The position numbers and the translations under genes are program-made. The notes beneath the pieces were generated by a model. The model was not told the DNA's origin and made no database searches. It was given only the letters and a program-made list of their open reading frames with translations. A DNA stretch of 64,000 nt from an uncultured Prevotellaceae bacterium (lineage in GTDB: Bacteria; Bacteroidota; Bacteroidia; Bacteroidales; Bacteroidaceae). Shown in pieces: positions 1 to 63,090 of the stretch. The stretch's first letter is position 1; each line of letters opens with the position of its first letter. The DNA lies in contig CACYYG010000003.1 in the NCBI GenBank assembly GCA_902778535.1, positions 13,345 to 77,344 on the forward strand, read 5' to 3'.

Positions 1-3000
1 ACCACAAGTGTCAGTAGGGTGGTGTCATCGAAGTCATATTCCTTTATCTTGGAGAACTTTCCACTGCTCAGGAACTTGAAGAATCCGATTGGCTCAACAT
101 AATTTTCGGGATCTTCCCATTCCGACAGTACATTCTTTCTGATTCTGCTTGTCTTAATTGCATCTTCTTTCGATGTTACAAGAGGGGCATTTACAGCAAC
201 AATTTCTTGATTGGGGATAGGAATGGCCTCCTGGACTTCTTCAACAACAGGAACAGCTTGCAGTTTACGGCTTACTCTCTGGTACTCATTGAACTGTATT
301 TCGTTGAGTCTTCTCTTCGTGCCTGCCTTGCGGACATACCACTCATTCTTGTAAGGCAGTCCCGATTGTATAGGTAGGATTTCTAAAATTAGGACATCCT
401 TATCCGTGTTATCTTCATCGAAGCAGATTCTCTTTATGTATGTTGTGGCAATACTGTTATCCCATTCCAGAGCGACCGCATCGACTATCGACCTAACATA
501 TTTTTCTTTATCGCCGTAATAAAGCGACGTATTCAAGTCATCTTCCACGCCTATACCATATCCGAAGTTGTTTACTCCAATGTAAAGTGTACCACCTCTG
601 GTGTTGAAGAAAGAATCAATCACCTTCAGTATCTCATCTTTTTGCTTCTCTGGATTGGGTAGACCACTATTATCATCAGCTGCAAACACGAAACTTGTTT
701 TGTACTCCGTTTCCTCAGTCTCTTCTCCTGTGCCATAGAGCTTCAACCCTGTCTCATATCCCTTCAGATTCAGTAATTGGATTATTTTGTTGTGGATATT
801 TGTGGCACTGCTTTCCAATCTGTTTGCCTTGGTGATATTATATGCCAAAACAAGGGATGCCAGGTTTTTCAATGACATATTTGTATTAGCGAGAGTTACT
901 AAATCCATGTTATGCTCTTCCCTGCCAATGAAGCTGACTGTTTGGAGTTGCATGAATCTATCCCTCAATACTACATTATTACTGAAAAGCTCAGCATTAG
1001 CATTTGCGAGTTGTGTCAGTTTATCTTCATCAACCTTTGAATTCTGGGCGAAATCATGGAGCATGGTTATGATATCCATCCTGCCCTTATAGTAAGCTGC
1101 CTGAGATTCCCAACCAATCAAAAGGCATAGGAGTCTTGCAAAGCCTAGATAATTGTATGACTTGACGTACTCCGAATCTATCAGGGCCATCCTGTCAATC
1201 ATGTAGATAACTTCTCTTACATACGATTCATCGATCAGTTTATCGCTCTCCAATATCTGATCTTCCTCCTCCTCCGAAATTTTCTCTGGTATTTTGCCGA
1301 CACTGGCATCTTCCATGAGATTTTTGAAAGCAGTGTTCAGGTCAAAATCAAACGATGTGAAATCCACGATGTCACAGGATATATGGAATGTGCCAGAACC
1401 TGAGCCTTTCAGTCTGCATCGGACTATACTGTTCTTGCCTATTCCTTCAAAATCACCTGCATTTCTGATACTTACGCTGACACCTTCTTTTGTGATCGCA
1501 GGAGCGTTTCCATACATGTTCGGAGTGTTACCTACAGAACAAATGATATCTTCATCATCTGAATAATAGTCGTTGCCAAAATAGTTCTTCAAATCATCGA
1601 GCATGGAGAAATGGAACAGATCATCTTCCACGTCGATAATCTGTGCTTGGAAAACGTAACGGCTACCGTCTGAGGCATAGAAGTGGCGGAGTGAAGTAGT
1701 AATGGAGTACCCTACGATGTCGTTTATATAGATGAAACCATTGCCACCAATCTCGTCCTCTATCTGACAGTAGTATTTACTCCTGTCATCAATATCTTGC
1801 CCGGTAAAGGTAATCTTTACAGTATCATCTAATCGGTGCTGCTTTTTGTTTTTCTTTGCAACAACCAAAGGTTTCTTGTTACTATTGAAGAATTCTGATT
1901 CTATCTCTTGCCAAACGGACTGGTATGGGCTTATATCATTAGACTTGACGGACGATAAACTCGTTTCAGTCTTTGTAGGTAAGAATACCTGTAGGTTTTT
2001 CCATAGCCCCAAATCACTTGGAAACACAGGACGGAGGCTCTCTTTATCACCTGCTGTTTGCAGATGAATTCCATTACCTGAGATAACAAGTCTTCCGTTG
2101 CCCTGGGAGAAGGAGTTTATCGTGTCTATGTTAGCACAAGGAGAACTGTAGATGTAATGGGGCAGCATCTTCACTGCATCTAGCGAATACACTGGAAGCT
2201 TTGCAGACGAATGGAATAAGTTATAATATGCCGCGTTAACATGTTTTTCAGAACTAGATGGATAAAGGTAAGATGACAGCACGCACAATCTTGCGGCGTT
2301 AAGCCGATAATCTGCAACACCAGACATATTTGAATCCTTGATGAGTAGCAGTTGGATAGCCAATGCCAACATATTGGTGTCAATTAACGCCTGGTTATCT
2401 TTGGTTTTGTCAATCCTACCGTCACATTCTCTTATATAGAGTTCAAGCAATTTTATCAAAGCACTGCTAAATGGCTCTCTTTCCCATATTTTGATGTCTT
2501 TGTTGCTGATGATGTCTAACAGCTCTTTTATCCGACTGTTCATCAGGTCTGGCCTGCGTAGGAATAGGGCAGATAGAATATTAAAGTTCTTTGTTGGATG
2601 ATAAACAAAACCAGATACCTTTAGTTTATTGAAAATGTTGTCGATAAATTGAGTAGGTGTATCTTGTTCCGTCGTTTCATTTCCGATAAGTTCAGCAGCC
2701 CTTATGTAATAGCCGATTTGCTCAATGAGGGAAGTAAGCCTCTCTTGATAGAAGTCCCTTTCATTATAGCTGCAAATATTTAGAAGATCAGACAGCTCTA
2801 ATAAGTCAGAGCAATCTCGTCTTACTGTTTGTAAATCCATTTTTTTGTTTAATAAGCTTTGGATCCATCGATGGCATTGGGATTCATAGGATTTTTCTTT
2901 TTCTTCGGTAAGTAATAACTTAACAAACTCTTTTGTATTCCAAGATATTTCTCTGGATTCAAGTAATTCGGTTAGTTTGCCTTCAGTCAGGTTGTCATTG

Positions 3001-3245
3001 CTTTGCTCAAACTCGCTTATGTCTACAAGTTCAATTTTAGGATGCTTTTCGCTAACTGCTAACACCCGACATTTCACTGTTTGTCCCTTAAACAGTATAA
3101 GTTTTGCCGTACCTTGGAGATATGACGTTATTCCTGTTTTCTCATCGATTAATTCACAATAGTTATTGAACAGTGATTTTACTTTGTAATCAATTATGTC
3201 ACCTATTTTATAGGCTTGGCGTGGGGTTTGTTTCTCTTGCTCCAT
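1..3245 (-). CDS. Large (>1080 aa, 3'-truncated by the window edge) protein with S1/OB-like domains and an AlbA_2 (Schlafen-like) domain
   Basis: Manual translation of the minus strand gives one open frame from ATG 3245 (alternative ATG 3293) to position 1; it is absent from the ORF track because its stop lies outside the window. N-terminus YKIGDIIDYKVKSL...GQTVKCRVLAV is S1-like; ~725-320 reads ETEYKTSFVF...ILKVIDSFFNTRGGTLYIGVNNFGYGIGV, the AlbA_2 signature. Confidence 0.85.
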   Translation of the reverse strand, partial: MEQEKQTPRQAYKIGDIIDYKVKSLFNNYCELIDEKTGITSYLQGTAKLILFKGQTVKCRVLAVSEKHPKIELVDISEFEQSNDNLTEGKLTELLESREISWNTKEFVKLLLTEEKEKSYESQCHRWIQSLLNKKMDLQTVRRDCSDLLELSDLLNICSYNERDFYQERLTSLIEQIGYYIRAAELIGNETTEQDTPTQFIDNIFNKLKVSGFVYHPTKNFNILSALFLRRPDLMNSRIKELLDIISNKDIKIWEREPFSSALIKLLELYIRECDGRIDKTKDNQALIDTNMLALAIQLLLIKDSNMSGVADYRLNAARLCVLSSYLYPSSSEKHVNAAYYNLFHSSAKLPVYSLDAVKMLPHYIYSSPCANIDTINSFSQGNGRLVISGNGIHLQTAGDKESLRPVFPSDLGLWKNLQVFLPTKTETSLSSVKSNDISPYQSVWQEIESEFFNSNKKPLVVAKKNKKQHRLDDTVKITFTGQDIDDRSKYYCQIEDEIGGNGFIYINDIVGYSITTSLRHFYASDGSRYVFQAQIIDVEDDLFHFSMLDDLKNYFGNDYYSDDEDIICSVGNTPNMYGNAPAITKEGVSVSIRNAGDFEGIGKNSIVRCRLKGSGSGTFHISCDIVDFTSFDFDLNTAFKNLMEDASVGKIPEKISEEEEDQILESDKLIDESYVREVIYMIDRMALIDSEYVKSYNYLGFARLLCLLIGWESQAAYYKGRMDIITMLHDFAQNSKVDEDKLTQLANANAELFSNNVVLRDRFMQLQTVSFIGREEHNMDLVTLANTNMSLKNLASLVLAYNITKANRLESSATNIHNKIIQLLNLKGYETGLKLYGTGEETEETEYKTSFVFAADDNSGLPNPEKQKDEILKVIDSFFNTRGGTLYIGVNNFGYGIGVEDDLNTSLYYGDKEKYVRSIVDAVALEWDNSIATTYIKRICFDEDNTDKDVLILEILPIQSGLPYKNEWYVRKAGTKRRLNEIQFNEYQRVSRKLQAVPVVEEVQEAIPIPNQEIVAVNAPLVTSKEDAIKTSRIRKNVLSEWEDPENYVEPIGFFKFLSSGKFSKIKEYDFDDTTLLTLV

Positions 3246-3349
3246 AGGGTTTAGCTCATTTTTCTGGTTTATTGTTTGATAAGATATTACCATCAATATA
3301 CAATTATTCTTTATCACTCAGAATCAAAGGTTCATCAATGGATATTAAG

Positions 3350-3550
3350 CTATTCGGTAATTAAATCTCTTTTTTCACACTCTAGTAACTCTGCAATCTT
3401 GTCTATCGTCGGTAGTGTAGGTTGAGTTATATTACTACACCACTTCGATACTGTAACAGCAGTTACGCCCAACTGTTCAGCAAGCCATACACCAGTCTTG
3501 TCTTTCTCAACCAATACAAGTTTTAGACGATTTAATTTCTTCTTATTCAT
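3350..3550 (-). CDS. XRE/Cro-C1 family HTH transcriptional regulator (66 aa)
   Basis: MNKKKLNRLKLVLVEKDKTGVWLAEQLGVTAVTVSKWCSNITQP is a typical Bacteroidetes HTH_3 protein. True start is ATG 3550, not the track's 3715. Confidence 0.9.
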   Translation of the reverse strand: MNKKKLNRLKLVLVEKDKTGVWLAEQLGVTAVTVSKWCSNITQPTLPTIDKIAELLECEKRDLITE

Positions 3551-3573
3551 ATTTAATTCCTTAAATTTCGATG

Positions 3574-3581
3574 CAAATATA
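3574..3581 (-). promoter_or_regulatory. Bacteroidetes sigmaA -7 box (TATATTTG) for the XRE gene
   Basis: Matches TAnnTTTG on the minus strand, 24 bp upstream of ATG 3550. Confidence 0.6.
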
Positions 3582-3724
3582 ACTATAAAAGTTGAGAACA
3601 GAGAGCATGGCTTATTAAAACTTATTAAAAAGAGTTCTTGTGGGCTTGTTTTGGAGCCAAAATGGAGACAATCTGATTTTTTTTTTCTAATTTTGTACCC
3701 AATAGAAATAAACAATTAGCAAAA

Positions 3725-4696
3725 ATGGAAAAAGCTTGTTTTACGAATATAAGTAGTGAGATAATTTCATTACTTAATAATGCAAAAAGTGAGGTATTGG
3801 TTGCAATGGCATGGTTTACCAGTGCAGAATTATTTGAAGCATTACAATCCTGTATAAGTAGAAAAGTACATGTTGAACTCATTCTGTTAGATAGTCCAAC
3901 AAACTTTATGTATTATGCTCCTGATTTCAATAGACTTCTAACTCCTCATAGCTGTTTAAGAATAGCAAAGCAAGATGTTGGAATTATGCATCATAAATTT
4001 TGTATAATAGACAGCAAGTTGGTAATTACAGGCTCATATAATTGGACATACAGAGCAGAAACCTATAATATCGAAAACGTGTTAATTACAGATGTTTCTT
4101 CCATAGTTTATTCTTATAGACAAGAATTTGACCAGTTGGCTTCAAACATTGAAATTTCAACTTATAGTCCTAGATTAACTTGGAATGAGATTCAACAACG
4201 GGATGATGTGGATGTTCGTGAGATTAATTATGAGATAAAACATATTTGCAAAACTCGAAATCTTCCAGTCATGAATGTTATCAAAGCGAGCACTGTTGTG
4301 CAGGTTGTAGAAACAAAACGTATACCGTATGCAAATAGGTATATTGGTATAGAAGTTATTGATAACAACAAGAATTATTTTGATTCGTTTATTGAACCCA
4401 GGGAGCAGCTTCCAATCAAAACTAAAACTCACAATTTATATTTTGACAGCATGAATGAGACTGTGTTTCCCTGTACATTCATCTGTGGAACTACAAACAA
4501 CAGGGATTCAGCTCAACTTATCAAGGAAGTCAATTTGATTGACCTAACAAAGGGAATTTCAGATCTAAATCTATTGATTCAATTTTCTATGTCGCTAGAT
4601 GTAAATGGAAGTTTACGAATTGACATTACTTGTCCGGCTACTGGCAAAAAAATGATGATAAGTGATATCAACTCTAATTATGTAAAATATGAGTAA
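3725..4696 (+). CDS. Phospholipase D-family (single HKD, Nuc-like) protein fused to a C-terminal Hsp70 substrate-binding-domain-like region
   Basis: HHKFCIID...TGSYNWT HKD motif at ~3989-4050. C-terminus IGIEV...IEPREQLPIK...FSMSLDVNGSLRIDITCPATGKKMMI aligns by eye with DnaK LGIET...IAKNTTIPTK...[26 protein letters not shown]. Confidence 0.8.
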   Translation: MEKACFTNISSEIISLLNNAKSEVLVAMAWFTSAELFEALQSCISRKVHVELILLDSPTNFMYYAPDFNRLLTPHSCLRIAKQDVGIMHHKFCIIDSKLVITGSYNWTYRAETYNIENVLITDVSSIVYSYRQEFDQLASNIEISTYSPRLTWNEIQQRDDVDVREINYEIKHICKTRNLPVMNVIKASTVVQVVETKRIPYANRYIGIEVIDNNKNYFDSFIEPREQLPIKTKTHNLYFDSMNETVFPCTFICGTTNNRDSAQLIKEVNLIDLTKGISDLNLLIQFSMSLDVNGSLRIDITCPATGKKMMISDINSNYVKYE

Positions 4697-7334
4697 AGTA
4701 GTTAGCAAATACAGGTCTATTGTTAGGGAAATAAATAGAGCATTCTATCTATTTCAAGAGCTTTCAAATGATGAATTGAGACATGAGATGATTATGATAG
4801 AGCAGGCTGTCGAGCAAAGTAATTATAAAGCAGACTGCTTAGAGGAAAATCTCGTAAAAGTGTTTGCTATCGTAAAAGAAACTGCAAGACGCTTTTCAGA
4901 AGGGAATATTATCGTTTTAGCAAATGACTACGACAAGTACCTTTCAGAGACGTATGATTTTGTTGTTATAGAAAACGACAAGGCAATATATAAAAACAGG
5001 TGGGATGCTGGCGGAGTACCATTTGAGTGGAACATGGTACACTATGATGAACAGCTATTGGGTGGTATATTACTTCACAATGGTTATGCGGTTGAAATGC
5101 TGACGGGAGAGGGGAAAACTCTTGTCGCCACCCTACCTGTTATGTTGAATGCTCTTACGCATGATGGAGTGCACATGATGACCGTGAATAGCTATTTGTC
5201 AAAGCGAGATTTTGAACTCACACGTCCTTTGTATATGTTCTATGGGCTTACGGCAGACTGTATTGAGTATTATCCTAATGGAAGCGTTAGGCGCAAGAAA
5301 GCCTACAAAGCAGATATTACGTTTGGAACTAATTCTTCATTTACTTTTGATTATTTGTATGATCACCTTGCTATGGACCCTTCAGAATGTGTTCAACAGA
5401 AACACACATTCGCAATCATCGATGAGTTGGATTCAATACTGATTGATGATGCAGGAACTCCACATGTCATAGGCGGTGGCAACTATTATAATCATGGCAA
5501 ATATTATGAGGAGAATCTTCCAATAATAAAAGAACTTTTGGAATCAGGGAACGCTCTTTCTCTCTACGAATCGGATTCTTTGCATAAAAAGGCTGAATTC
5601 ACAAAGGATGGAAAGGCATGGCTTGCTGCAAAAAAACAGATTCCGGATTTATTTGCTGTTGAGAAAACCTATGAAATTGATGATTTTGACGAGCTTATTC
5701 CAACAGAAAAGAATGAATTATTAGAAAAAATGTTCATTCAAAATGTCCTTTATCAGTTGCTCGTTGCTTTTACAGTTTATGAGAAGGATATAGACTATGT
5801 CGTAGATAATGGTAAGATTAAAATAATTGACCAAAATACAGGGCGCATTAAAGAAAGTAACAGGTGGGAACATGGATTGCATTCTGCCATAGAAGTGAAG
5901 GAAGGGGTTAAGGTTCAGGATGATTTTGACGGTATGGCCGTCATATCGTTAAAGAACTATTTCAAGCTATATCACAAAGTCGCAGGTATGTCAGGAACGA
6001 TCATGGCTGTGAAAGACGAGTTGGAAGATGTCTATGGCTTGAAGTGTGAATCATTACCCACCCACAAACCTCTTATCCGCTTAGACATGCCATTACGGGT
6101 TTATAGGACAGAGGAACAAAAAGAAAAAGCTATTATTGATCTCATCATAGAAAACAAGAAAAATGGTCGGCCAACATTGTTAGGATGCATCAACATAAAA
6201 CGTTGTGAAAATATTGCTTGTCTGCTTGAAGTACAAAATATACCATTCAATCGTTTAGATGCTAAAACCATCAAAGGAGAAGCAGTCACCATTGCAAAAG
6301 CCGGAATCGGGAATACTATTACAGTAGCTACAAGCGTTGCAGGACGTGGAACCGACATCAAGCCATCGCAAGATGCGCTCGACAATGGTGGACTGATGGT
6401 CATTGGTACCGATTTGTTTGACTCAGTCAGAATAGACAATCAGTTGAAAGGAAGGACGGGAAGACAAGGCAATCCTGGCTCTTCCGTGTTTTTTGCATCT
6501 TTAGAAGATTCTATACTACAATACCTTAGCAAAGAAGATCAAATCCAATTAGAAATGATTTTTAATAACAAACAGGCCAACGAACTCAATGATACTCAGG
6601 TCTTGTCTTTCTTCGCAAAAGCCCAGTCTAACAGAGAGTCCTTGTCATATCAAAGTAGAGTAAGCACGGCGCGAAAGGATGATGTTGTTGCTCCACGCAG
6701 GTTGAGATTCTATAGCCAGCGTAATGAATTGCTCTTTAATCCAAATAGTGCTATTACGTTAGTTGAACAAATTGCCAAAGCCAACAACGTTCCCATTGAA
6801 ACTATAGACAAACATTTGAACGAATTATACCAGACCACCAAAGAATTACTTAATAGAAGTCTTAGAAATAATCCATACGCTTTACGAGCCTTAGTGGCTT
6901 TCTCTAACAACAGACATTCATTTGCCATCCATTTAAATATTCATTCTGTTATTAATAGTTGTGTTGACTTTGAGACAGAGTTTAAGAGGCAAGTATTACT
7001 GCAAGTCTCAGATAAGGAATGGAAAAAATTTGTCATCTATATGATGGGGGATTTGGATAACCATGAAATCGATTTGCTAGATGAAAGATATGAGAAGATG
7101 ATGGATAAAATAAAAGCCATTGTCCTTAGTAGGCTTACAAATTCCACAATCATTTTCGATGAAAAAAAGCAAGAAGATTACATTTATAGAAAAGAGGAAC
7201 CTTCTTCCGAGCCAGTAAAATCTCATAACACCATTGCCCCCGATGATCCCTGCCCATGTGGCAGCCAAAAAAAATACCGTGAATGTCATGGTCGAGGCAT
7301 TCACGGCACTCCTATGAAGAGACGTAGACGTTAG
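4689..7334 (+). CDS. secA: Divergent SecA paralogue (881 aa) with C-terminal SEC-C motif
   Basis: MVHYDEQLLGG, MLTGEGKT, IIDELDSILIDDA, YFKLYHKVAGMSGT, VATSVAGRGTDIK, DNQLKGRTGRQG and PCPCGSQKKYRECHG. Start overlaps the PLD gene by 8 nt. Confidence 0.9.
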   Translation: MSKVVSKYRSIVREINRAFYLFQELSNDELRHEMIMIEQAVEQSNYKADCLEENLVKVFAIVKETARRFSEGNIIVLANDYDKYLSETYDFVVIENDKAIYKNRWDAGGVPFEWNMVHYDEQLLGGILLHNGYAVEMLTGEGKTLVATLPVMLNALTHDGVHMMTVNSYLSKRDFELTRPLYMFYGLTADCIEYYPNGSVRRKKAYKADITFGTNSSFTFDYLYDHLAMDPSECVQQKHTFAIIDELDSILIDDAGTPHVIGGGNYYNHGKYYEENLPIIKELLESGNALSLYESDSLHKKAEFTKDGKAWLAAKKQIPDLFAVEKTYEIDDFDELIPTEKNELLEKMFIQNVLYQLLVAFTVYEKDIDYVVDNGKIKIIDQNTGRIKESNRWEHGLHSAIEVKEGVKVQDDFDGMAVISLKNYFKLYHKVAGMSGTIMAVKDELEDVYGLKCESLPTHKPLIRLDMPLRVYRTEEQKEKAIIDLIIENKKNGRPTLLGCINIKRCENIACLLEVQNIPFNRLDAKTIKGEAVTIAKAGIGNTITVATSVAGRGTDIKPSQDALDNGGLMVIGTDLFDSVRIDNQLKGRTGRQGNPGSSVFFASLEDSILQYLSKEDQIQLEMIFNNKQANELNDTQVLSFFAKAQSNRESLSYQSRVSTARKDDVVAPRRLRFYSQRNELLFNPNSAITLVEQIAKANNVPIETIDKHLNELYQTTKELLNRSLRNNPYALRALVAFSNNRHSFAIHLNIHSVINSCVDFETEFKRQVLLQVSDKEWKKFVIYMMGDLDNHEIDLLDERYEKMMDKIKAIVLSRLTNSTIIFDEKKQEDYIYRKEEPSSEPVKSHNTIAPDDPCPCGSQKKYRECHGRGIHGTPMKRRRR

Positions 7335-9802
7335 TTTTCCTTTACGAAAGGAACCAAGAAATCGTTGATATACAAGAAGAAAGAAATTGATCTGTCGGGA
7401 TTTTTAACAGCCAGCATTGGATTACAGGTATTTATGGACTCATCTGCGGCCTTTTTGGCTATAAGTTCCATTGATGCAGGTGTATATGTACCAGCTTTTT
7501 CTGTCGAATATGTATAGTCGCCTATATAGTCAATAATACCCTTTGAAGTTCTGAAAGCATCCTCTAATAGAGGCTTTGCGTTAATAGCATCTATCATGTG
7601 CGTAACCATAATAAGTTGGCCATCCCTGCTATAGCTTCCAAGTAAATATCCTATTGGCCCGTCAGTAATGTCATCCATATCTTCTCCGTCAAATATTGTT
7701 TCTGAACTAATAGCCATTCGAATGCCATAACCATCGAGTTTATAAGTTTCTAAACGATCAGCAACCACGCCTCTATTATCATGTGACCATATTGTGCTAT
7801 GTAGGTGCTCTCCTTGTCCTATTTTAATATTTAATTCACGTACAAAGAGATTTACAAGCGAAGCTATGTCACTATTTGTAGCGAGGAAAGTTGGTGAATA
7901 GCAGCCGCTCCCTTCAAGATAGAAGTTCTTGGTATCTTGTTCTATACGTGATAAGTACGCTTTACGTAACTCAAAAGGATTACCGTCTTTTGAAGAAATA
8001 CATAATAGATTTGATGAATGGTTTGTAATACATAAACTGACGATATCCGTTTCGGGAACGGCATAGCTAATGAAATGAAGCATTTCGTTACTTCCTGTGC
8101 AATCAATTATCAAATCGTAATCCTTTATCTGTTTTATGCTATCCTCTTGGTTACAGTAATTGATATTTCCATAGAAGGAGCCGCCTTCATAAGTGTAGTC
8201 ATTGACATTGTCATGTTGATGCCAGTAACCATTATCTTTGATTTCCTTTGTTTTTATAAATGGGTTTATTGAGAGTAGTCTTTTTTTAAGAGCATCAACC
8301 TTACTTGTCCCCAAATCAGATAGTAGATATATGCTTCTGCAAATATTCCCAGGTTCTACAATGTCACTATCCCATAGTCCCATAATAGTAACTCCACTTC
8401 TTGCTAATGATTCGGCAATCATGGAACCCAATGCCCCAAGACCAACTAGTGCAATTCTCTTGTTTTGGAGTTGTTGCGAAAATAATCCTCTGCCAAAGAA
8501 CAAATTGTTATCAATAATCTGTGGGAGTTGAAGCTGCAATGGGAAAGATATAGGTTTTCTCAGGTTTATGTCCCTCAAATTCAGATTAAAAGACATTTCA
8601 TCGTATTGACCTGCTTGTCTGTTTGTATAGCATAAAAGCCAAGTGGTTTTTTCTGAATCTCTTATGCCCAATGCAAAACAGTGGTATTCATAAGGGTAAA
8701 CATATATGGCATAGTCCTCCTCAGCTTGTCTTGCATATTCTTCTTCCAACTCTTCTTCTGTCATTTCGTCAAGGTCTTTGGCTGGTCCGGAAAGTGAAGC
8801 GAAAGGTCTATAACCGTTATATTTCTTTATTTCTTCTTCAAGTCTAACAAGACATTCGTTTAGCAGTGTCTTTTGTTGAGGCAACACCTTTGTTTGGACA
8901 TAATCAGGATTTTTATTTATACGTGCTGGGAGGTATGACTCTTCTTTTGCCAGTTCTTCCTTTATCCCAGTTAAGATAATGTTAGCTTCTTCAAAAGAAT
9001 AGTTGTTAAAACTGATTCTATAAGAGCCACCTTCAGCCCATGACTTGCTTAGATTAAAACCATGTAATAAATGCTCACACGTTTTCTCATCCCAGTCATA
9101 CTGATTCTTAAGGAGTATAAAATCTCTATAAGTATCAATATTCTTGGGGGCTTCATCAACTATTATATATGGTAACTCATAATTTGCCAATTCTTTGTTT
9201 TGGAGAGCATAAAAACGTTTATCTGGTGTCTTGATGCAATGGATAGTACCCATTTTTTCTTTAAAATAATCCATGTCATTGGAGAAATCTCCAACAAAAG
9301 TCAAAATAGCATCACCATGATATTCACTTAACTCATCACTGTTCTCCCAACTATAAGCACTCTCGAAAGCTAGTGCATTTCTTACGTTTTCGTCTTCGAT
9401 AACAGCTTCTAAGTCTGGCCGCATTTGACGACCTATCCATTCTTTAAGACGGAGAACTTCTATCTCTAATTGGTTCTCGGCGGTTTCAGCAAAGGGTGTA
9501 TTCAAGCAAAACCATCCACCATATTTCTCAGCCTTTGGATCCTTTCTCGGATTGTAAATCAAATGAGGATACCCAAACAGTGATTTAGTTCGAAACATCA
9601 ACTTCTGATGTGGAAAGGACATTGGGATTTCCACTCTCAGTTCAAGTGGGTGAATTGTATTGAGAACTTCAATACGACCCACATAACATTTTTTTTCTTC
9701 CTTGTCTTCTGATTCCTTGAATTCCTCAATGACACTAAAGCCTGGATGATTCTGGAAGAATGAAGTGTAGAAAGAAGCGTCTTTATACTCGAACATAGCC
9801 AT
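7331..9802 (-). CDS. E2-like + ThiF/E1 + degenerate JAB fusion (823 aa), Cap2-like conjugating enzyme
   Basis: N-terminal E2-like YPHL...WFCLN (C99); ThiF motifs VGLGALGS and DSDIVEPGNICRS; E1 catalytic-type GSGCYSPTF (C634); C-terminal GYLLG...YIGDYTYST...NPMLAV is JAB/MPN-like but lacks HxH. Confidence 0.85.
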   Translation of the reverse strand: MAMFEYKDASFYTSFFQNHPGFSVIEEFKESEDKEEKKCYVGRIEVLNTIHPLELRVEIPMSFPHQKLMFRTKSLFGYPHLIYNPRKDPKAEKYGGWFCLNTPFAETAENQLEIEVLRLKEWIGRQMRPDLEAVIEDENVRNALAFESAYSWENSDELSEYHGDAILTFVGDFSNDMDYFKEKMGTIHCIKTPDKRFYALQNKELANYELPYIIVDEAPKNIDTYRDFILLKNQYDWDEKTCEHLLHGFNLSKSWAEGGSYRISFNNYSFEEANIILTGIKEELAKEESYLPARINKNPDYVQTKVLPQQKTLLNECLVRLEEEIKKYNGYRPFASLSGPAKDLDEMTEEELEEEYARQAEEDYAIYVYPYEYHCFALGIRDSEKTTWLLCYTNRQAGQYDEMSFNLNLRDINLRKPISFPLQLQLPQIIDNNLFFGRGLFSQQLQNKRIALVGLGALGSMIAESLARSGVTIMGLWDSDIVEPGNICRSIYLLSDLGTSKVDALKKRLLSINPFIKTKEIKDNGYWHQHDNVNDYTYEGGSFYGNINYCNQEDSIKQIKDYDLIIDCTGSNEMLHFISYAVPETDIVSLCITNHSSNLLCISSKDGNPFELRKAYLSRIEQDTKNFYLEGSGCYSPTFLATNSDIASLVNLFVRELNIKIGQGEHLHSTIWSHDNRGVVADRLETYKLDGYGIRMAISSETIFDGEDMDDITDGPIGYLLGSYSRDGQLIMVTHMIDAINAKPLLEDAFRTSKGIIDYIGDYTYSTEKAGTYTPASMELIAKKAADESINTCNPMLAVKNPDRSISFFLYINDFLVPFVKEN

Positions 9803-9808
9803 CTCTAT

Positions 9809-9946
9809 TTATGCGTGACCTCTTGGAGAAGGTGTTGAGGTCGGTGGATTCTGTGTTGATACTCTCGCCTCAGGTTCTTTACGAGTAGTTCTGAGGACAG
9901 TCCGATTTGACGGGCCAATACCATTGTATGAAGGATTGTTATTCAT
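9809..9946 (-). CDS. Unannotated 45-aa low-complexity peptide MNNNPSYNGIGPSNRTVLRTTRKEPEARVSTQNPPTSTPSPRGHA, candidate E1 substrate/modifier
   Basis: ATG 9946 to TAA 9809; the stop is 6 nt before the E2-E1 ATG; a -7 box lies just upstream. Below the ORF-track size cut-off. Confidence 0.7.
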   Translation of the reverse strand: MNNNPSYNGIGPSNRTVLRTTRKEPEARVSTQNPPTSTPSPRGHA

Positions 9947-9976
9947 AAGTAATATTCATTTGATTATATGATTTTG

Positions 9977-9984
9977 CAAAAGTA
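9977..9984 (-). promoter_or_regulatory. -7 box (TACTTTTG) of the peptide/E2-E1-JAB operon
   Basis: Perfect TAnnTTTG on the minus strand ~30 bp upstream of ATG 9946. Confidence 0.65.
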
Positions 9985-10192
9985 CAAAAAAAGAGGGAAT
10001 TACTTGTCAATTAAGATATAAAAAAGAATAAAATGGCGTTTTGAGTATGTAATTATGGCAAAATGAATATTTTTTTCCAGATACGTATTAAACTAACATG
10101 TCAGTAAACAGTTGTTACATGTTAGAAGGGGGAAAAGAGTCAGTCTGTGTGTAAGCTTCTTTTGACAGTTTTTTTATTCATTATTTCAAACC

Positions 10193-11951: not shown

Positions 11952-14894
11952 ATGATATCATTGATTTGCATATTGGTTTTCGTTTCCGTTCTCATCGGCA
12001 TGGGTATCTCCGTCAAGGCCTTCGGCACTGGCGGCAAGCGTGCCCGTATCTTCCAGGACATCTATTTCAGCATCGAGGATGTTGATGGTATCGGCATCAT
12101 CTATACCAAGACGGGAGAGTATTCCGCCATCATTAAGATGGATAATCCCGTCCTGAAGTTCTCCGCTGACGAGGACAGCTACTATGGCTTCGTGAACCTG
12201 ATGACCTCCGTTGTCACCACGCTTGGCGAGGGCTATGCCCTGCACAAGCAAGACATCTTCGTCCACAAGACTTTCGAGCGTCCCGCCGACGAACCTGTGG
12301 ACAACGGCAAGCGTTTCCTCTCCGAGTCCTATTTCCGTTTCTTCAAGGGCCGTCCCTATACGGCCAGCAGCACCTATCTTGTCATCACCCAGGAGAGCAA
12401 GAAGGGAGGTCTCTTCACTTTTGAGAGCAAGAAATGGGGTGACTTCCAGATGAAGATCCAGAAAGTCTATTCGCTGCTTTCCGACAGCGGCATCACCTGT
12501 TCCTTCCTCAGTATGAAGGAAGCCCGTGAGTATGCCGACCGTTTCTTCGCCGTCAACTTCAACGACAAGGTCTTTTCCATGACCGACTTCAAGGTTGACA
12601 GCGAAGGAATCCGCATGGGCAACAGGCAGTGCAAGGTCTTCAGCCTGATAGACCTCGACAGCGTAGGACTCCCCAATGTCCTCCGTCCCTATACCGAGCT
12701 TCATGTCGATAACGCCACCATGCCCGCCGATCTCATGGGCGACATCGACCATGTGCCTGATGTGGACACCCTTGTCTACAACCAGGTTCTGTTCATCCCC
12801 AACCAGAAGAAGGAGCAGAACAACCTGGAGAAGAAGCAGAACAAGCACCGTGCCATGGCCAACCCCGCCAACATGATTGCCGCCAAGGACATCGAGGAGG
12901 CCCAGGAGGTCATGGCCCGTGAGAACCGCCAGCTTGTCTATTCCCATTTCAACATGCTTGTCAGCATCGGTGCCGACAAGGACATGGACAAGGTCACCAA
13001 CCATCTGGAGAATATCTTCTCCAAACAAAATATCCGTATCAGCCGCCGGGCGTACAACCAGCTGGAGCTTTTCGTGGCCAGCTTCCCCGGTAACTGTTTT
13101 TCTTTGTCGCCCAAGTACGACCGTTTCCTCACGTTCTGTGAGGCCGCCATCTGCCTGATGTACAAGGAGCGTCAGACGCAGGGTGACATCACCCCGCTGC
13201 GCTGCTACTATACCGACCGTCAGGGCGTGCCCATGGCCGTTGACATCACCGGCAAGGAGGGCAAGAAGAAATACACCAATAACAGTAATTTCTTCGTGCT
13301 GGGTCCGAGCGGCAGCGGAAAAAGTTTCTTTATGAATACCGTTGTCCGCCAGTATTACGAGCAGGACACCGATGTCGTCATCGTCGATACCGGCGACAGC
13401 TATGAGGGTATCTGCGGCTATTTCGGCGGTGTCTATATCAGCTACAGCAAGGAACGTCCCATCTCCATGAACCCCTTCAAGGTCACGGAGGAGGAGTACA
13501 CCCAGAACTTCGGAGAGAAAAAGAACTTCCTCAAGAGCCTTATCTTCCTCATCTTCAAGGGCACCGAGAAGCCCACGAAGATTGAAGAGACCATCATCAA
13601 CCAGACCATCGTCGAGTACTACCGTGAGTATTTCACGCCTTTCAGGGGCTACAGCGACACCGAGCGTCAAGAGCTTGCTGACCGTCTCGTTCTCCAGTAC
13701 AAGAAGGACGGCACTTTCGACACCTTTGAGAAGGACTTCGAGAAAGCCTATATGGAGAAGCATGGTGTCAGTCTCACCGAGGAGGAACAGGAGCGTCAGG
13801 ACAGGCTGATGAACAAGGAGCGTAAGCTTGACAACCTTATCAATGACGATGCCGCTACTGAGGGAGAAAAGCACTCCGCCAGGGTGCGTCGTGAGGAGGT
13901 GCACCATGAGCTGATGAAGCTCACCGAGCTTACCGCCAGCAGTTTCGATGACAAGATCAGCCGTGATATCATCAAGATGGAGATGCAGCGCAGCAAGCTC
14001 CGTGTTTCCGAGCTGAGTTTCAATACTTACTATGAGTTTGCCGTGGAGCGCATCCCCCAGATACTGAAGGAGCAGCATGTGGACTTCGCCATCCATGACT
14101 TCGCCACCATCCTGCAGCCGTTCTACAAGGGTGGTGAGCTGGAGTACACGCTGAACAACGATATGGACAGCACCCTTTTCGATGAAAAGTTCATTGTCTT
14201 CGAGATTGACAAGGTGAAGGACGACCCCATCCTTTTCCCCATCATCGTGCTCATCATCATGGATGTGTTCACCCAGAAGATGCGCATCAAGAAAGGCCGC
14301 AAGTGCCTGGTCATCGAAGAGGCGTGGAAGGCCATTGCCACCCCCGTCATGGCAGAGTACATCAAGTACCTCTATAAGACCGCCCGCAAGCATTGGGCGA
14401 TGGTCGGTGTGGTGACGCAGGAGATCCAGGACATCACCAGCAGTGAGATTGTCAAGGAGGCCATCATCAACAACTCCGACGTCTTTATGCTTTTGGACCA
14501 AAGCAAGTTCAAGGACAAGTTCGATGACATCAAGGCCACGCTGGCCTTGACGGACATCGACTGTAAGAAGATCTTTACGATTAACCGTCTTGACAACAAG
14601 GAGGGTCGCAGTCCCTTCAAGGAGGTCTTCATCAAGCGCGGCACAGAGGGAGATGTCTTCGGTGTCGAGGAGCCGAGGGAGTGCTATATCAGCTATACCA
14701 CGGAGAAGGCCGAGAAGGAAGCCCTGAAAGTCTATGTCCGCCATTACGGTGGTGACTACCAGAAGGCCATCGTTGCCTTCATCCATGATTGGGAACGCAG
14801 CGGCATCGGCAAGTCTCTGGAGTTCGCCCGCAAGGTGTTGAAGGAAGGCGTTCTCAACCTCCCCGCAAGGAGTGTGAGGATGATACAAGCATAG
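11952..14894 (+). CDS. traG: TraG / VirB4-family T4SS ATPase
   Basis: Walker A GPSGSGKS, VIVDTGDSY, Walker B LVIEEAW, TARKH...VTQ. Confidence 0.95.
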   Translation: MISLICILVFVSVLIGMGISVKAFGTGGKRARIFQDIYFSIEDVDGIGIIYTKTGEYSAIIKMDNPVLKFSADEDSYYGFVNLMTSVVTTLGEGYALHKQDIFVHKTFERPADEPVDNGKRFLSESYFRFFKGRPYTASSTYLVITQESKKGGLFTFESKKWGDFQMKIQKVYSLLSDSGITCSFLSMKEAREYADRFFAVNFNDKVFSMTDFKVDSEGIRMGNRQCKVFSLIDLDSVGLPNVLRPYTELHVDNATMPADLMGDIDHVPDVDTLVYNQVLFIPNQKKEQNNLEKKQNKHRAMANPANMIAAKDIEEAQEVMARENRQLVYSHFNMLVSIGADKDMDKVTNHLENIFSKQNIRISRRAYNQLELFVASFPGNCFSLSPKYDRFLTFCEAAICLMYKERQTQGDITPLRCYYTDRQGVPMAVDITGKEGKKKYTNNSNFFVLGPSGSGKSFFMNTVVRQYYEQDTDVVIVDTGDSYEGICGYFGGVYISYSKERPISMNPFKVTEEEYTQNFGEKKNFLKSLIFLIFKGTEKPTKIEETIINQTIVEYYREYFTPFRGYSDTERQELADRLVLQYKKDGTFDTFEKDFEKAYMEKHGVSLTEEEQERQDRLMNKERKLDNLINDDAATEGEKHSARVRREEVHHELMKLTELTASSFDDKISRDIIKMEMQRSKLRVSELSFNTYYEFAVERIPQILKEQHVDFAIHDFATILQPFYKGGELEYTLNNDMDSTLFDEKFIVFEIDKVKDDPILFPIIVLIIMDVFTQKMRIKKGRKCLVIEEAWKAIATPVMAEYIKYLYKTARKHWAMVGVVTQEIQDITSSEIVKEAIINNSDVFMLLDQSKFKDKFDDIKATLALTDIDCKKIFTINRLDNKEGRSPFKEVFIKRGTEGDVFGVEEPRECYISYTTEKAEKEALKVYVRHYGGDYQKAIVAFIHDWERSGIGKSLEFARKVLKEGVLNLPARSVRMIQA

Positions 14895-53996: not shown

Positions 53997-54423
53997 CGAC
54001 TTATCCAGTCGGCTAGCGTAGAACGAGGCCACAATGGCTTCCGGAAGAACAAGTCGATGTAGAAGCAGAAGAGGATCCGCTGGAGTACCGCATCGACGGG
54101 ACGAATGCTTTCGATACGTTGTAAATAGGCTGTGAAAAATTCCTGCATTATGATATCTACCCTGACACAATAGGCGGCATCTTGCAGTCTTCTACTCAAA
54201 CAGGTCTAATTATCTAAGAGAATTTGTACTCTTGCCCCAAAAACTGATAGTTATGAGTAAAGAAAGTCAGACAATTTCGACGAGTAAATATCATCTCTCG
54301 CATACGACATTGATGAAGCATTTCTTGAAACACTCAAGAAACATGGTGATTTTGTGATATCGATGTTATGCGCGTACATATTAAAAAAAATAAAAAATAT
54401 TTCATTTTTTGCTTCAAATTTGC

Positions 54424-54600
54424 TAACTTTGTAGCCAATTAGCAGTTTTGGCGTAAGCCTTCACCGCTACCCGACAAAGACCAATAAGGCTAAAAGCCTA
54501 AAACATAGAAATATAGAACTCCCTTATAGCGAATTAAAAGGTTTGGTCACCTGTCGAGTCGCTATTTGGGAGTTTCTACGTTTAAAGAGTTTAATATCAA
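54424..54600 (+). promoter_or_regulatory. -7 box TAACTTTG (54424-54431) and a ~180-nt structured 5' leader
   Basis: Perfect -7 box; several complementary segments before ATG 54619 (see findings). Confidence 0.55.
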
Positions 54601-54618
54601 CTACTAAATAATTAAATC

Positions 54619-55251
54619 ATGAGTAAACTTAAAGATTTAGCATTTTCACTAAACTTATCAGCAGGAATACCTGGTATGAATATACAATCTAAGACTGCTG
54701 ACAAATTTCAGGAGTATGCAGATGCTTTATACGACTATACAACAAAAAATCTAGAAGATTTTTTATCAATAAGTGATAATGATGGTTATCACGTAGGAAT
54801 GGCATTTAGCCACATCTTAGAACATACTTCTTACAAAGAATCTGACAATGTTTTCAATGAAGAAAACAACAAATTTAACATGTCTCTTCACTGTACAGTT
54901 ATAGGTCTGTGGAGAGGTATACAAATGGGAACGATGCAATCAGTCATTGCTGCGCAAAGGTTAATTTATCTTCTAGAAAAGTATAAAACCCATTTCGACA
55001 TTATGTATGCCAAATTGACAGGAATGTCATTAAATGATCTAATGGAATCTGATAAAGAAGATGTAGAAGCGAAGAAAGAGAACATATGCAAGTGCATCCT
55101 GTATTATTTGATACAAATTACAAAGGCACAAGACGCTTTCAAAGATGCTAACATGAAAGCTTGTGAAATAGGAAAGAAATACCTAGACGTGATGCATGAT
55201 GAATATTGTGAAGATTTAAAAGGCTTTTCTTTGTTTGGCATCATAATGTAA
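54619..55251 (+). CDS. Hypothetical helical protein (210 aa)
   Basis: Long ORF in AT-rich DNA; first gene after the leader; no recognised motif. Confidence 0.7.
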   Translation: MSKLKDLAFSLNLSAGIPGMNIQSKTADKFQEYADALYDYTTKNLEDFLSISDNDGYHVGMAFSHILEHTSYKESDNVFNEENNKFNMSLHCTVIGLWRGIQMGTMQSVIAAQRLIYLLEKYKTHFDIMYAKLTGMSLNDLMESDKEDVEAKKENICKCILYYLIQITKAQDAFKDANMKACEIGKKYLDVMHDEYCEDLKGFSLFGIIM

Positions 55252-55263
55252 AAATTATATAAT

Positions 55264-55590
55264 ATGCAAATTAACGCAAACAACATAAGTCCTATCGTTT
55301 TCGAAAAGGCAAAAAAATATCTCCCAGTAAGACTGTCAACAACATCTTTTGATGGTATCGGTGAATGTATGTGCATTGTTGCTAACAGAGCTGATGGCAT
55401 GACAACAGAAATAGTTGAGAACATAAATTCAGAAGTATTTATCACACTGATGAATTCAGCGCTATACGAGGATATAAAACGTCGAGTTTTGAATATGGAC
55501 TATTGGGTTCCCAATAAATGGTATAACACGATTATTGGCTTCGCTGATGGTATAGAACGTAAAATTCATTTAGATTGTGACGTTTTCTAA
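55264..55590 (+). CDS. Hypothetical protein (108 aa)
   Basis: Tight operon spacing (12 nt before, 21 nt after). Confidence 0.6.
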   Translation: MQINANNISPIVFEKAKKYLPVRLSTTSFDGIGECMCIVANRADGMTTEIVENINSEVFITLMNSALYEDIKRRVLNMDYWVPNKWYNTIIGFADGIERKIHLDCDVF

Positions 55591-55611
55591 AGTTCTCAAA
55601 TACAAATAGAA

Positions 55612-56676
55612 ATGGCATCTTGGCAACACAGAGATATAAAAGTTAATGGTGTGCCTGTTAAAGCGCAGGCTCCTATTATCGTTTCTGCAAGCAGAAGTAC
55701 TGACATTCCTGCTTTTTATGCAGATTGGTTCTTCGATAGGTTAGGAAAAGGGTACTCAGCATGGACAAACCCTTTCAACGGCGTAAAGTCATATATATCA
55801 TACGACCTAACACGCTTCATTGTATTCTGGTCTAAAAATCCTGAGCCTTTAATACCCTATTTGCACATACTAAAAGAGAAGAATATAAAGTGCTATATTC
55901 AATACACGTTGAATGACTACGAGGAAGAAAAACTTGAAAAGGTTCCACTTCTCGTAAAACGAATTGAAACATTCAAGTCACTTGTTAAGATATTAGGTAA
56001 AGGTGCTGTTATTTGGCGTTTTGACCCAATGATTCTTACAGATAATATTAGTGTAGAACTACTTCTTGAAAAAGTTAAGAATATAGGTGACCAATTGAAA
56101 GGATATACTGAGAAACTTGTTTTCAGTTATGCTGACATCGCTATGTATTCAAAAGTAAAGCGAAATCTCAAGACAAATGGAATACCTTATCATGAGTGGG
56201 AAGCCTCTCAAATGGAAGAATTTGCAGAGAAACTATCTGCAATGAATGAAGAAAGAGGATGGAACTACAATCTTGCTACATGTGGCGAGAAAATTAATAT
56301 TGAAAAATATAAAATTCTTCATAACCGATGTGTTGATGGCGACTTAATTACCCGTCTAGCCTGGGAAGACAAAGAACTAATGAAGTTCATGGGAGTGAAG
56401 ATTGAAAATGTTCCGCAACCTTCTCTTTTCGGAAGCATCGAATTACCAGAAGGCGCAATTCTTCTTCCTCAGAATCACTATTTCATAAGCACTCATAAGA
56501 AAGATCCAGGGCAACGCCAGTTCTGTGAATGCATGGCATCGAAAGATATAGGTGAATATAACACATGTCCTCACCTTTGCGAGTATTGTTATGCCAATGC
56601 GACTAAAGAACTAGCACTAGACAATTGGAAAAAGCATCAAGAAAACAAATACAGTGATACGATAACAGGAAAATAA
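55612..56676 (+). CDS. DUF1848 family protein (radical-SAM/SPL-like)
   Basis: IVSASRSTDIPAFY, IVFWSKNP, IWRFDP, DIGEYNTCPHLCEYCYAN (CxxxCxxC). Confidence 0.88.
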   Translation: MASWQHRDIKVNGVPVKAQAPIIVSASRSTDIPAFYADWFFDRLGKGYSAWTNPFNGVKSYISYDLTRFIVFWSKNPEPLIPYLHILKEKNIKCYIQYTLNDYEEEKLEKVPLLVKRIETFKSLVKILGKGAVIWRFDPMILTDNISVELLLEKVKNIGDQLKGYTEKLVFSYADIAMYSKVKRNLKTNGIPYHEWEASQMEEFAEKLSAMNEERGWNYNLATCGEKINIEKYKILHNRCVDGDLITRLAWEDKELMKFMGVKIENVPQPSLFGSIELPEGAILLPQNHYFISTHKKDPGQRQFCECMASKDIGEYNTCPHLCEYCYANATKELALDNWKKHQENKYSDTITGK

Positions 56677-56678
56677 TT

Positions 56679-61886: not shown

Positions 61887-61898
61887 AATCAATAAAAT

Positions 61899-62882: not shown

Positions 62883-63008
62883 ATGCAAGAGTCGCGAAAC
62901 TCTCCTTTTGCATAAAGGCGTGAATGCATTGCTATATTCTGCAGTTTTGTTCCGATAGAATTTCTGCAAGGCTTTGTACGTCGAATAATTAGCGAATACT
63001 TTAATATG

Positions 63009-63040
63009 AAACGGCAGACCGTGAGGCCCGCCGTTTTTTA
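63009..63040 (+). terminator. Possible terminator for the right-island operon
   Basis: AAACGGC/GCCGTTT stem followed by a T-run. Confidence 0.45.
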
Positions 63041-63090
63041 TATCAAATACCAGTGATAGCCCCATTCAAGCTATCATATCATATTTGTTA

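Follow-up and report, generated by a model that had tools for sequence, protein, structure and literature searches.

A Phospholipase D-Family Protein Carrying an Hsp70 Substrate-Binding Domain Homolog Is Encoded in a Conserved Module with a SecA Paralog, an E2-E1 Fusion, and a Small Peptide in Bacteroidota

Introduction

Both phospholipase D (PLD)-family nucleases and Cap2-type ligases are established components of bacterial immunity. The PLD nucleases Nuc and Zucchini carry a single HKD motif per chain, which pairs with that of a second copy to build the active site. In CoCoNuT/McrBC-type systems, McrB or McrC is joined to Hsp70 units with a nucleotide-binding domain (NBD) and a substrate-binding domain (SBD), and these units have been proposed to bind RNA (PMC11090510, PMC10542128). 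Cap2 and Cap3 of Type II CBASS, Pycsar, and 6A-MBL systems are described as conjugating the tail of the system's own signaling enzyme (Ledvina 2023 and Jenson 2023, as cited in PMC11601596). Here, we analyzed a gene that joins a PLD domain to the β-subdomain of an Hsp70 SBD (SBD-β), referred to as PLD-SBD, together with its neighboring genes in a 64,000-nucleotide stretch of contig CACYYG010000003.1 from an uncultured Prevotellaceae bacterium (the window).

An earlier reading of this DNA, made from the letters without database searches (the sequence-only reading), had described PLD-SBD as a single-HKD PLD followed by a DnaK SBD-β-like domain in an architecture that it did not recognize. Of the two domain identities we are practically certain. 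Beyond that reading, PLD-SBD belongs to a conserved module of three to four genes, and its partners there narrow down the mechanism further than the protein by itself. We consider PLD-SBD to be very probably the effector of this module, which we regard as a conserved conflict module.

Results

The N-terminal part of PLD-SBD matches Pfam PLDc_2 over residues 13 to 138 (1e-25; 90.5 bits versus a cutoff of 27). The HKD motif that had been read from the sequence (HHKFCIID...GSYNWT) proved to be complete, and H89, K91, D96, G103, S104, and N106 are all invariant in 31 homologs with identities down to 35%. The nearest sequences in the PDB are those of mouse MitoPLD/Zucchini (1.9e-14), Helicobacter pylori NucT (4.5e-8), and Salmonella Nuc (1e-7). 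Foldseek searches with an AlphaFold2 (AF2) model of the full-length protein identified NucT with an E value of 1.5e-8 and a template modeling (TM) score relative to the target of 0.75 to 0.77, and Zucchini with an E value of ~1e-8. The top NCBIfam match is also nuclease NucT (50.5 bits versus a cutoff of 297); the matches in PADLOC and NCBIfam (DrmC, DpdK, MkoB/C, and NucT) come via the PLD part alone and lie far under the equivalog cutoffs. Because the HKD motif is intact and the nearest relatives in sequence as well as in fold are NucT, Nuc, and Zucchini, we assign the N-terminal half to the nuclease branch of the PLD family. Judged by alignments and models, residues 1 to 148 are a single-HKD PLD domain of this branch and are predicted to have nuclease activity. 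In the region that follows, R150, L151, W153, N168, E170, and I171 are conserved; AF2 places helices at residues 153 to 157 and 164 to 177, and the score of the predicted local distance difference test (pLDDT) is low across residues 181 to 200.

The original description of MitoPLD was that of a cardiolipin hydrolase, and PLD-SBD has weak NCBIfam matches to cardiolipin synthases, far under the cutoff. Both observations would fit a PLD domain that acts on phospholipids or in housekeeping in a gene neighborhood that is coincidental. We consider this extremely improbable, as PLD-SBD matches nucleases best (NucT, Nuc, Zucchini, DrmC, and DpdK) and has no membrane segment; the sparse distribution, foreign GC content, defense-island neighbors, and conserved gene order with overlapping stop and start codons, all described below, also argue against it.

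The C-terminal domain is less accessible to single-sequence searches. The window protein alone has no HSP70 match in Pfam at an E value of ≤0.1, and a phmmer search with residues 150 to 323 against 1.8 billion representative sequences returned nothing but proteins of ~320 amino acids with the same architecture. A family profile of residues 186 to 323 from 31 members was searched against all PDB sequences, and all 60 matches listed are SBDs of the Hsp70 family, including those of HSPA2 (1.1e-9), Hsc70 (4.3e-9), Kar2 (5e-9), and DnaK (2.5e-7). Individually, 3 of the 31 members match Pfam HSP70 (best E value, 7.5e-8). The by-eye call of a DnaK SBD-β in the sequence-only reading thus outreached single-sequence tools, because for the window protein HSP70 surfaced only via the family profile. 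The call is also borne out by structure modeling. A model of the isolated C-terminal domain (pLDDT, 91.3; predicted TM score, 0.80) adopts the SBD-β sandwich, superposes on the SBDs of DnaK (residues 393 to 502) and Hsp70 at ~2.5 Å, and has Hsp70 SBDs as all of its best 50 Foldseek matches in the PDB (TM score relative to the query, 0.64 to 0.73; root mean square deviation, 2.4 to 2.6 Å over ~120 columns), for example, 4ezp_B, 4po2_A, and 3dpo_B. With the full-length model, too, the PDB matches to the C-terminal domain are without exception Hsp70 SBDs.

Neither Pfam nor fold searches with the window protein gave a match to an Hsp70 NBD. There is no NBD because residues 1 to 148 are PLD, and there is no lid because the chain terminates at residue 323, which is 8 to 10 residues past strand β8; on both points, the sequence-only reading was correct. 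By profile and fold, residues ~200 to 323 are a genuine homolog of Hsp70 SBD-β.

To map residues, we used Escherichia coli DnaK 389 to 607, whose sequence was verified to match the corresponding PDB chains exactly. The equivalences between DnaK and PLD-SBD are G400 and G208, I401 and I209, P419 and P230, V436 and F248, I438 and C250, I472 and I285, G482 and G295, and L484 and L297. The substrate cleft residues compared were I401, T403, M404, F426, A429, Q433, V436, I438, and I472 of DnaK. Across the 31 members, the positions of I401, V436, I438, and I472 remain hydrophobic, with I/V/L, L/F/I, C/L/I, and I/V/L, respectively. In a MAFFT alignment, the interdomain linker of DnaK (VLLLDV) aligns onto the conserved VVQVVETK of PLD-SBD. 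Two cysteines of the SBD are conserved in the module clade, i.e., C250 at the DnaK I438 pocket position (window positions 4472 to 4474; Cys in 17 of 31 sequences) and C303 (4631 to 4633; Cys in 28 of 31); in the stand-alone relatives described below, each of these positions is a Cys in just 1 to 2 of 10 sequences.

Table 1. Features of the PLD-SBD module in the window
Feature	Coordinates	Strand	Evidence
Bacteroides-type -7 promoter box TAATTTTG	3689..3696	+	Read from sequence; 29 nt 5' of PLD-SBD start codon
PLD-SBD gene, 323 aa	3725..4696	+	Open reading frame (ORF); at least 314 homologous clusters of equal length; full-length model, pLDDT 82
PLD domain, aa 1-148, single HKD, Nuc/NucT/Zucchini type	3725..4168	+	Pfam, PDB sequence, Foldseek, NCBIfam
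Catalytic motif H89xK91xxxxD96xxxxxxG103S104xN106	3989..4042	+	Invariant alignment columns
Conserved helical middle region and linker-like VVQVVETK (aa 192-199)	4169..4321	+	Conserved columns, model
Hsp70 SBD-β homolog, aa 200-323; eight-strand sandwich and short C-terminal strand, lidless	4322..4693	+	Profile, domain model, Foldseek
SecA paralog, 881 aa	4689..7334	+	Pfam SecA_DEAD (1e-81), SecA_PP_bind, P-loop_SecA, SecA_SW, SEC-C
E2-E1-(degenerate JAB) fusion, Cap2/Cap3-like, 823 aa	7331..9802	-	PADLOC E1-E2 (2.4e-70), Pfam ThiF
45-aa peptide gene (MNNNPSYNGIG...TPSPRGHA), likely E1 substrate or tag	9809..9946	-	Conserved as protein in 14 loci

PLD-SBD forms a four-gene unit with the genes for a SecA paralog, an E2-E1 fusion, and a small peptide (Table 1). 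This unit is present in identical order and orientation at every main-clade homolog with enough flanking sequence, with SBD identities down to 29% (the window and loci L001 to L006, L009, L013 to L016, L096, and L098/L099). The SecA paralog gene is 3' of PLD-SBD at every main-clade locus, and in the window its ATG overlaps the PLD-SBD stop codon by 8 nt (tATGAGTAA), an arrangement of translational coupling. The SecA paralog is complete, with the DEAD motor, the preprotein-binding domain, the wing/scaffold, and the C-terminal SEC-C zinc motif; the housekeeping SecA (1,127 amino acids) is encoded elsewhere in the genome (G000:C9). At L003 (8968 to 11616), the SecA-like gene is broken into three ORFs of 542, 246, and 78 amino acids with intact neighbors and represents a decaying copy.

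The E2-E1 gene is convergent with the SecA paralog gene, and the two stop codons share 4 nt. The closest named family of its product is 6A-MBL cap2_3 in NCBIfam (84.9 bits, under the cutoff of 320). In 12 loci, there is no variation in the E2 Cys (WFCLNTPF), in the GxGAIGS and GNICRS motifs, or in the nucleotide loop and the cysteine loop (GCYSPTF) of the E1. The HxH motif of the JAB domain is degenerate in 10 of 10 main-clade loci, with residues of the Y-x-Y-S type (YIGDYxYS). The peptide gene stands 5' of the E2-E1 gene. In the clade, the peptide has 42 to 53 amino acids, is of low complexity, and ends in Ala; its C terminus PSPRGHA is invariant but is replaced by RPYA in the divergent loci L016 to L018, and a divergent Bacteroides fragilis locus has the end ...APASRPYA. 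A family search with the 45-amino-acid peptide gave no match. The C termini of PLD-SBD and of the SecA paralog were also considered as substrates of the E1 and rejected; the former vary (..VKYE, ..YDEENGR, and ..VTNML), and the latter consist of basic tails that follow SEC-C.

A variant arrangement is found at L017 (323 to 3778) and L018 (287 to 3745), where genes for a peptide (50 to 51 amino acids), an E2-E1-JAB fusion, and PLD-SBD (358 amino acids) follow one another in the same direction with no adjacent SecA gene. This variant shows PLD-SBD to be linked more closely to the peptide and the ligase than to SecA. In L017/L018, the JAB metal site (JAMM) is intact (EWHTHPE...SGTD), and the peptides carry 2 to 3 residues past the conserved Ala (...PAPRPYA-SE and -YKY), while in the main clade the peptides stop exactly at Ala and the JAB domain is degenerate (ten loci). 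This pattern, which involves two lineages only, is what would be expected if the C-terminal Ala were the substrate of the E1 and the JAB domain were needed only to expose it.

The strict linkage to a peptide and a ligase favors protein ligands for the SBD and so bears on the very improbable alternative that the SBD binds RNA and brings the nuclease to RNA or to ribosomes. Such a role would fit with the closest PLD, Zucchini, which cleaves single-stranded RNA. In addition, the Hsp70 units of CoCoNuT systems have been proposed to be RNA binders (PMC11090510, PMC10542128). However, the reported binding of RNA by Hsp70 also involves the NBD, which is absent here, and the SBD of PLD-SBD shows no enrichment of basic residues.

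Upstream of PLD-SBD, the box TAATTTTG fits the TAnnTTTG consensus of Bacteroidota promoters. A sigma-70 promoter scan gave no excess over shuffled sequences, and a terminator scan was below background.

The architecture that the sequence-only reading had not recognized is not a one-off but that of a family spread across Bacteroidota. Profile searches identified PLD-SBD proteins of 326 to 361 amino acids in Flavobacteriales, Chitinophagales, Cytophagales, Sphingobacteriales, and Bacteroidales, and a full-length alignment search of viral contigs added one (L101). The family is sparse; in a set of 300 evenly drawn Bacteroidota genomes, a single one apart from the window's own contains a full-length match. 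Most family members are stand-alone genes, and 23 such loci were recorded in Flavobacteriales, Chitinophagales, Cytophagales, and Sphingobacteriales and on the viral contig (L021, L024, L029, L030, L032 to L034, L039, L042, L045, L048, L052, L054, L055, L057, L058, L062, L064, L069, L076, L078, L082, and L101). Nine of ten distant relatives pass the Pfam HSP70 gathering score at model positions ~390 to 500, i.e., SBD-β, with up to 60 bits, and with a profile of the stand-alone SBDs, real DnaKs score 87 bits. The stand-alone relatives retain G400, P419, T428, D431, N432, and Q433 of DnaK, of which T428, D431, N432, and Q433 make up the L3,4 loop signature. A maximum-likelihood tree places the module-linked proteins, the L017/L018 variant among them, on one branch with a support of 100/99 and a length of 0.87; 19 of 20 stand-alone proteins lie apart from this branch, and L101 joins it weakly. 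The tree supports that the module clade is a derived monophyletic branch of a Bacteroidota-wide PLD-SBD family.

Genes adjoining the stand-alone PLD-SBDs include those for TOTE DUF7017/S1CSD, GmrSD, SMODS CD-NTase (CBASS), iREC, AlgX-like, and Ymh proteins, and no neighbor family is common to more than 3 of the 23 loci. The stand-alone genes are candidate single-gene defense systems. We considered that a split-off Hsp70 ATPase domain might be encoded by the gene 5' of stand-alone PLD-SBDs and rejected this, as the upstream genes are heterogeneous. An SBD-containing ORF of 470 amino acids at L034 was likewise rejected as a second kind of SBD fusion; it encodes an ordinary DnaK in the flank.

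The stand-alone loci are also the point of departure for the alternative that the SBD binds a polypeptide from a phage, be it an abundant, unfolded structural protein or a factor that normally engages host DnaK, and thereby switches on the nuclease, with ligase, peptide, and SecA paralog as a separate arm or a regulator. Genes without a conserved partner, in defense islands or on a viral contig, would be expected of such a sensor, and the SBDs that they encode are nearer to canonical Hsp70 in their Pfam scores and in their L3,4 loop. What this alternative leaves unexplained is that the module clade is never found without peptide and E2-E1 and that its SBD lies on a long derived branch. Moreover, no phage protein acting on the SBD of DnaK in Bacteroidota is known to us. 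Overall, we consider a phage sensor of this kind unlikely. The related idea in the sequence-only reading, a DnaK decoy for phage proteins that hijack chaperones, gained no specific support, although it may hold for the stand-alone relatives.

At two loci (L019, 4456 to 8182; L001, 1 to 2566), the PLD domain and the start of the middle region (residues 1 to 165; 36 to 45% identical) are combined with a different C-terminal domain. These proteins of 393 to 397 amino acids are encoded behind a reverse transcriptase (RT) and a protein of ~310 amino acids, in an arrangement that looks like an RT-linked three-gene system with a common effector. Because the PLD domain and the start of the middle region recur with an unrelated C terminus, the C-terminal domain is an exchangeable, system-specific adaptor.

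The GC content of the module is 0.36 to 0.39, and that of the genome is 0.527. Within the window, it is 0.36 to 0.41 at positions 1 to 10000 and 54000 to 64000 and 0.49 to 0.59 across 10000 to 53000. Based on the difference between the window's ends and both its middle and the genome mean, the PLD-SBD module lies in acquired DNA of low GC content. The module borders a stretch of conjugation genes (TraG-like ORF at 11952 to 14894), and related copies adjoin BREX and TIR, RloB/AAA_21, PIF1-DUF7017 (TOTE), GmrSD, CBASS, and RT systems. The best explanation is that the module was horizontally acquired and is located in a defense island.

Just upstream of the module, two minus-strand genes encode a protein of >1,105 amino acids with a C-terminal Schlafen/AlbA_2 domain (3 to 3317; Pfam, 8.6e-7) and a small HTH_3 regulator (3350 to 3553); they are not conserved beside the module at other loci. 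A TOTE-type pair, i.e., a PIF1-like helicase with a TBP-TOTE domain and a DUF7017/S1CSD protein, is found beside PLD-SBD in three otherwise different contexts (L001, 4431 to 7881; L002 to L005, 14327 to 16975; and L039, 3123 to 6843), and in one case the pair stands directly 5' of a stand-alone PLD-SBD and runs in the same direction. This adjacency could be a defense-island coincidence or a functional link.

The window's own assembly (3.9 Mb, 100% complete, and 55 contigs) did not yield dnaK. In this assembly, a PF00012 search gave only an MreB-like match of 354 amino acids, tblastn with E. coli DnaK 389 to 607 gave nothing, and blastn with a dnaK locus from the same genus matched in a flank alone (C2:45926). 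DnaK is present in 8 of 8 relatives (E value, ~1e-259). The missing dnaK reflects a gap in the assembly or a genuine loss.

Discussion

Our best reading, drawn by analogy, is that PLD-SBD works as a sensor-effector nuclease of defense islands. In the mechanism that we propose, the single-HKD PLD domain would pair with a second copy to form the active site; because a single HKD must pair, nuclease activity would depend on the oligomeric state. The SBD would clamp an extended polypeptide, and occupancy of the clamp would set whether and where the nuclease acts. The chances that an extended peptide bound by the SBD controls the nuclease appear to us evenly balanced. A nuclease gated by peptide binding had already been inferred in the sequence-only reading; the hydrophobic cleft positions, the L3,4 loop signature of the stand-alone relatives, and the strict linkage of the module clade to a conserved disordered peptide and to a ligase that would activate it lend this reading indirect support. 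In the stand-alone relatives, a phage-derived or stress-exposed polypeptide, not encoded by the gene itself, would serve as the ligand.

In the module clade, the E1 would adenylate the peptide at its C-terminal Ala, hand it to the E2 cysteine, and ligate it to a target. PLD-SBD would read this peptide tag and either cut nearby nucleic acid or be freed from inhibition, and these tagged or extended chains would also be handled by the SecA paralog, a motor that binds and threads unfolded polypeptides. Because the module-clade SBD lies on a long branch and is never found apart from peptide and ligase, the peptide tag is the most economical ligand. We therefore tentatively put forward the module's own peptide tag, free or ligated, as a possible ligand of the module-clade SBD. 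That the module as a whole represents tag-and-read immunity built from proteostasis parts, in which a Pup-like peptide is ligated to phage or host proteins and is read by the SBD-nuclease and by a SecA-derived unfoldase or extractor, is doubtful on present evidence.

Several observations weigh against the peptide tag as the ligand. None of the 23 stand-alone loci has an E2-E1, peptide, or SecA-like neighbor, and for this reason the SBD in most of the family does not depend on a tag. In the module clade, the SBD has not retained the arch (404/429) and Q433, its loop L1,2 is longer and variable, and Cys is found at the position of I438. As judged from the alignment, this divergence of the cleft would fit a new ligand and also a loss of peptide binding; the hydrophobicity of the cleft is weak evidence because the same positions form the core of the sandwich. 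The N-terminal PSYNGIG of the peptide is not universal, with LYNPSKPGL in L098, NNYQGAS in L016, and GLYIGKK in L017/L018. The genomic context behind the "module" labels in the tree was confirmed for about a third of the rows. Finally, a phage protein could just as well be the ligand in the module clade.

The divergent cleft loops of the module clade, together with the hydrophobic linker-like stretch before the SBD, are also compatible with an SBD that has lost client binding and instead dimerizes the PLD domain or docks it on E2-E1 or SecA, possibly via the VVQVVETK of a second protomer. Lidless BiP forms oligomers in which the SBD binds the linker of a second protomer, and lid-truncated oligomeric BiP (7a4u and 7a4v) is among the best fold matches; as with Nuc and Zucchini, a single-HKD PLD needs a partner subunit. 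However, PLDs of the Nuc type dimerize via the PLD domain itself, the PLD domain with the start of the middle region occurs with other C-terminal domains, and the linker is modeled as disordered (pLDDT, 59 to 64) and outside the cleft. We consider a role restricted to dimerization or docking quite unlikely and retain the peptide-binding clamp as our working model.

There is a credible chance that the module represents a new principle. Based on PADLOC-DB v2 and an incomplete literature search, three features appear to be undescribed, namely, the use of an Hsp70 peptide clamp on its own to regulate a nuclease, an E1-E2 whose apparent substrate is a free, disordered peptide, and the presence in one module of an additional, cytosolic SecA. 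If the clamp reads a peptide, it would provide a simple route from an exposed or tagged polypeptide to the cutting of nucleic acid and would extend bacterial ubiquitin-like signaling to a tag that is not a β-grasp protein. If the tag-and-read mechanism were true, a chaperone SBD and a Sec motor would for the first time have been repurposed as bacterial readers of a ubiquitin-type modification. The stand-alone PLD-SBDs offer a one-gene system for testing the principle of a clamp-gated nuclease.

We found no PADLOC-DB v2 model and no paper with a PLD-SBD fusion, in a literature search that was thin on subscription journals and in which absence is not proof; nor did this search or PADLOC-DB v2 return a defense module with a SecA paralog or a Cap2-type enzyme that has a free peptide as its substrate. 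We considered membership in DISARM, Dpd, Mokosh, and CBASS and rejected it, as the PLD or the E1-E2 parts alone match, below the family cutoffs. The DrmC model of DISARM (NF038319) scores PLD-SBD at 31.9 versus a cutoff of 133, and within 10 kb of PLD-SBD there are no DISARM genes (DrmA, DrmB, or methylase) and no Dpd genes nearby. With Nuc, NucT, Zucchini (MitoPLD), DrmC, and DpdK, PLD-SBD shares one HKD per chain, the GSxN and NxEN motifs, the fold (Foldseek E value, ~1e-8), and a domain size of ~150 residues; unlike PLD-SBD, these proteins have no Hsp70 SBD.

The C-terminal domain resembles Hsp70/DnaK in profile (E value, 1e-9), in fold (~2.5 Å over ~120 residues), in its hydrophobic cleft, and in the hydrophobic linker-like segment that precedes it. 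It differs in the lack of NBD and lid, the longer L1,2, the Cys in place of I438, and the fusion to a nuclease instead of an ATPase. Because NBD and lid are lacking, PLD-SBD would have no ATP-driven cycle. The CoCoNuT/McrBC systems share with the PLD-SBD module the recruitment of a chaperone-derived domain into a conflict system beside nucleases (PMC11090510), but their units keep the NBD with the SBD, whereas PLD-SBD has a lone SBD-β on a PLD domain.

As in the Cap2/Cap3 systems, the neighboring protein of 823 amino acids joins E2, E1, and JAB domains, and its E2 and E1 cysteines are conserved. In Cap2 systems, however, the substrate of the E1 is the tail of the signaling enzyme, whereas the presumptive substrate here is a free peptide of 45 amino acids; among ~17 loci, the conserved unit contains no CD-NTase, cyclase, 6A, or MBL gene. 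The module also differs in its effector, PLD-SBD, and in the presence of the SecA paralog. With the Pup-proteasome pathway of actinobacteria (Pup, PafA, and Mpa), the likeness is one of analogy only, i.e., a short disordered tag that is ligated to proteins and then read by a binding module and a threading ATPase. The ligases are unrelated (the glutamine-synthetase-like PafA versus E1/E2), as are the tag sequences, and in the PLD-SBD module, which has no proteasome, the reader would be a nuclease.

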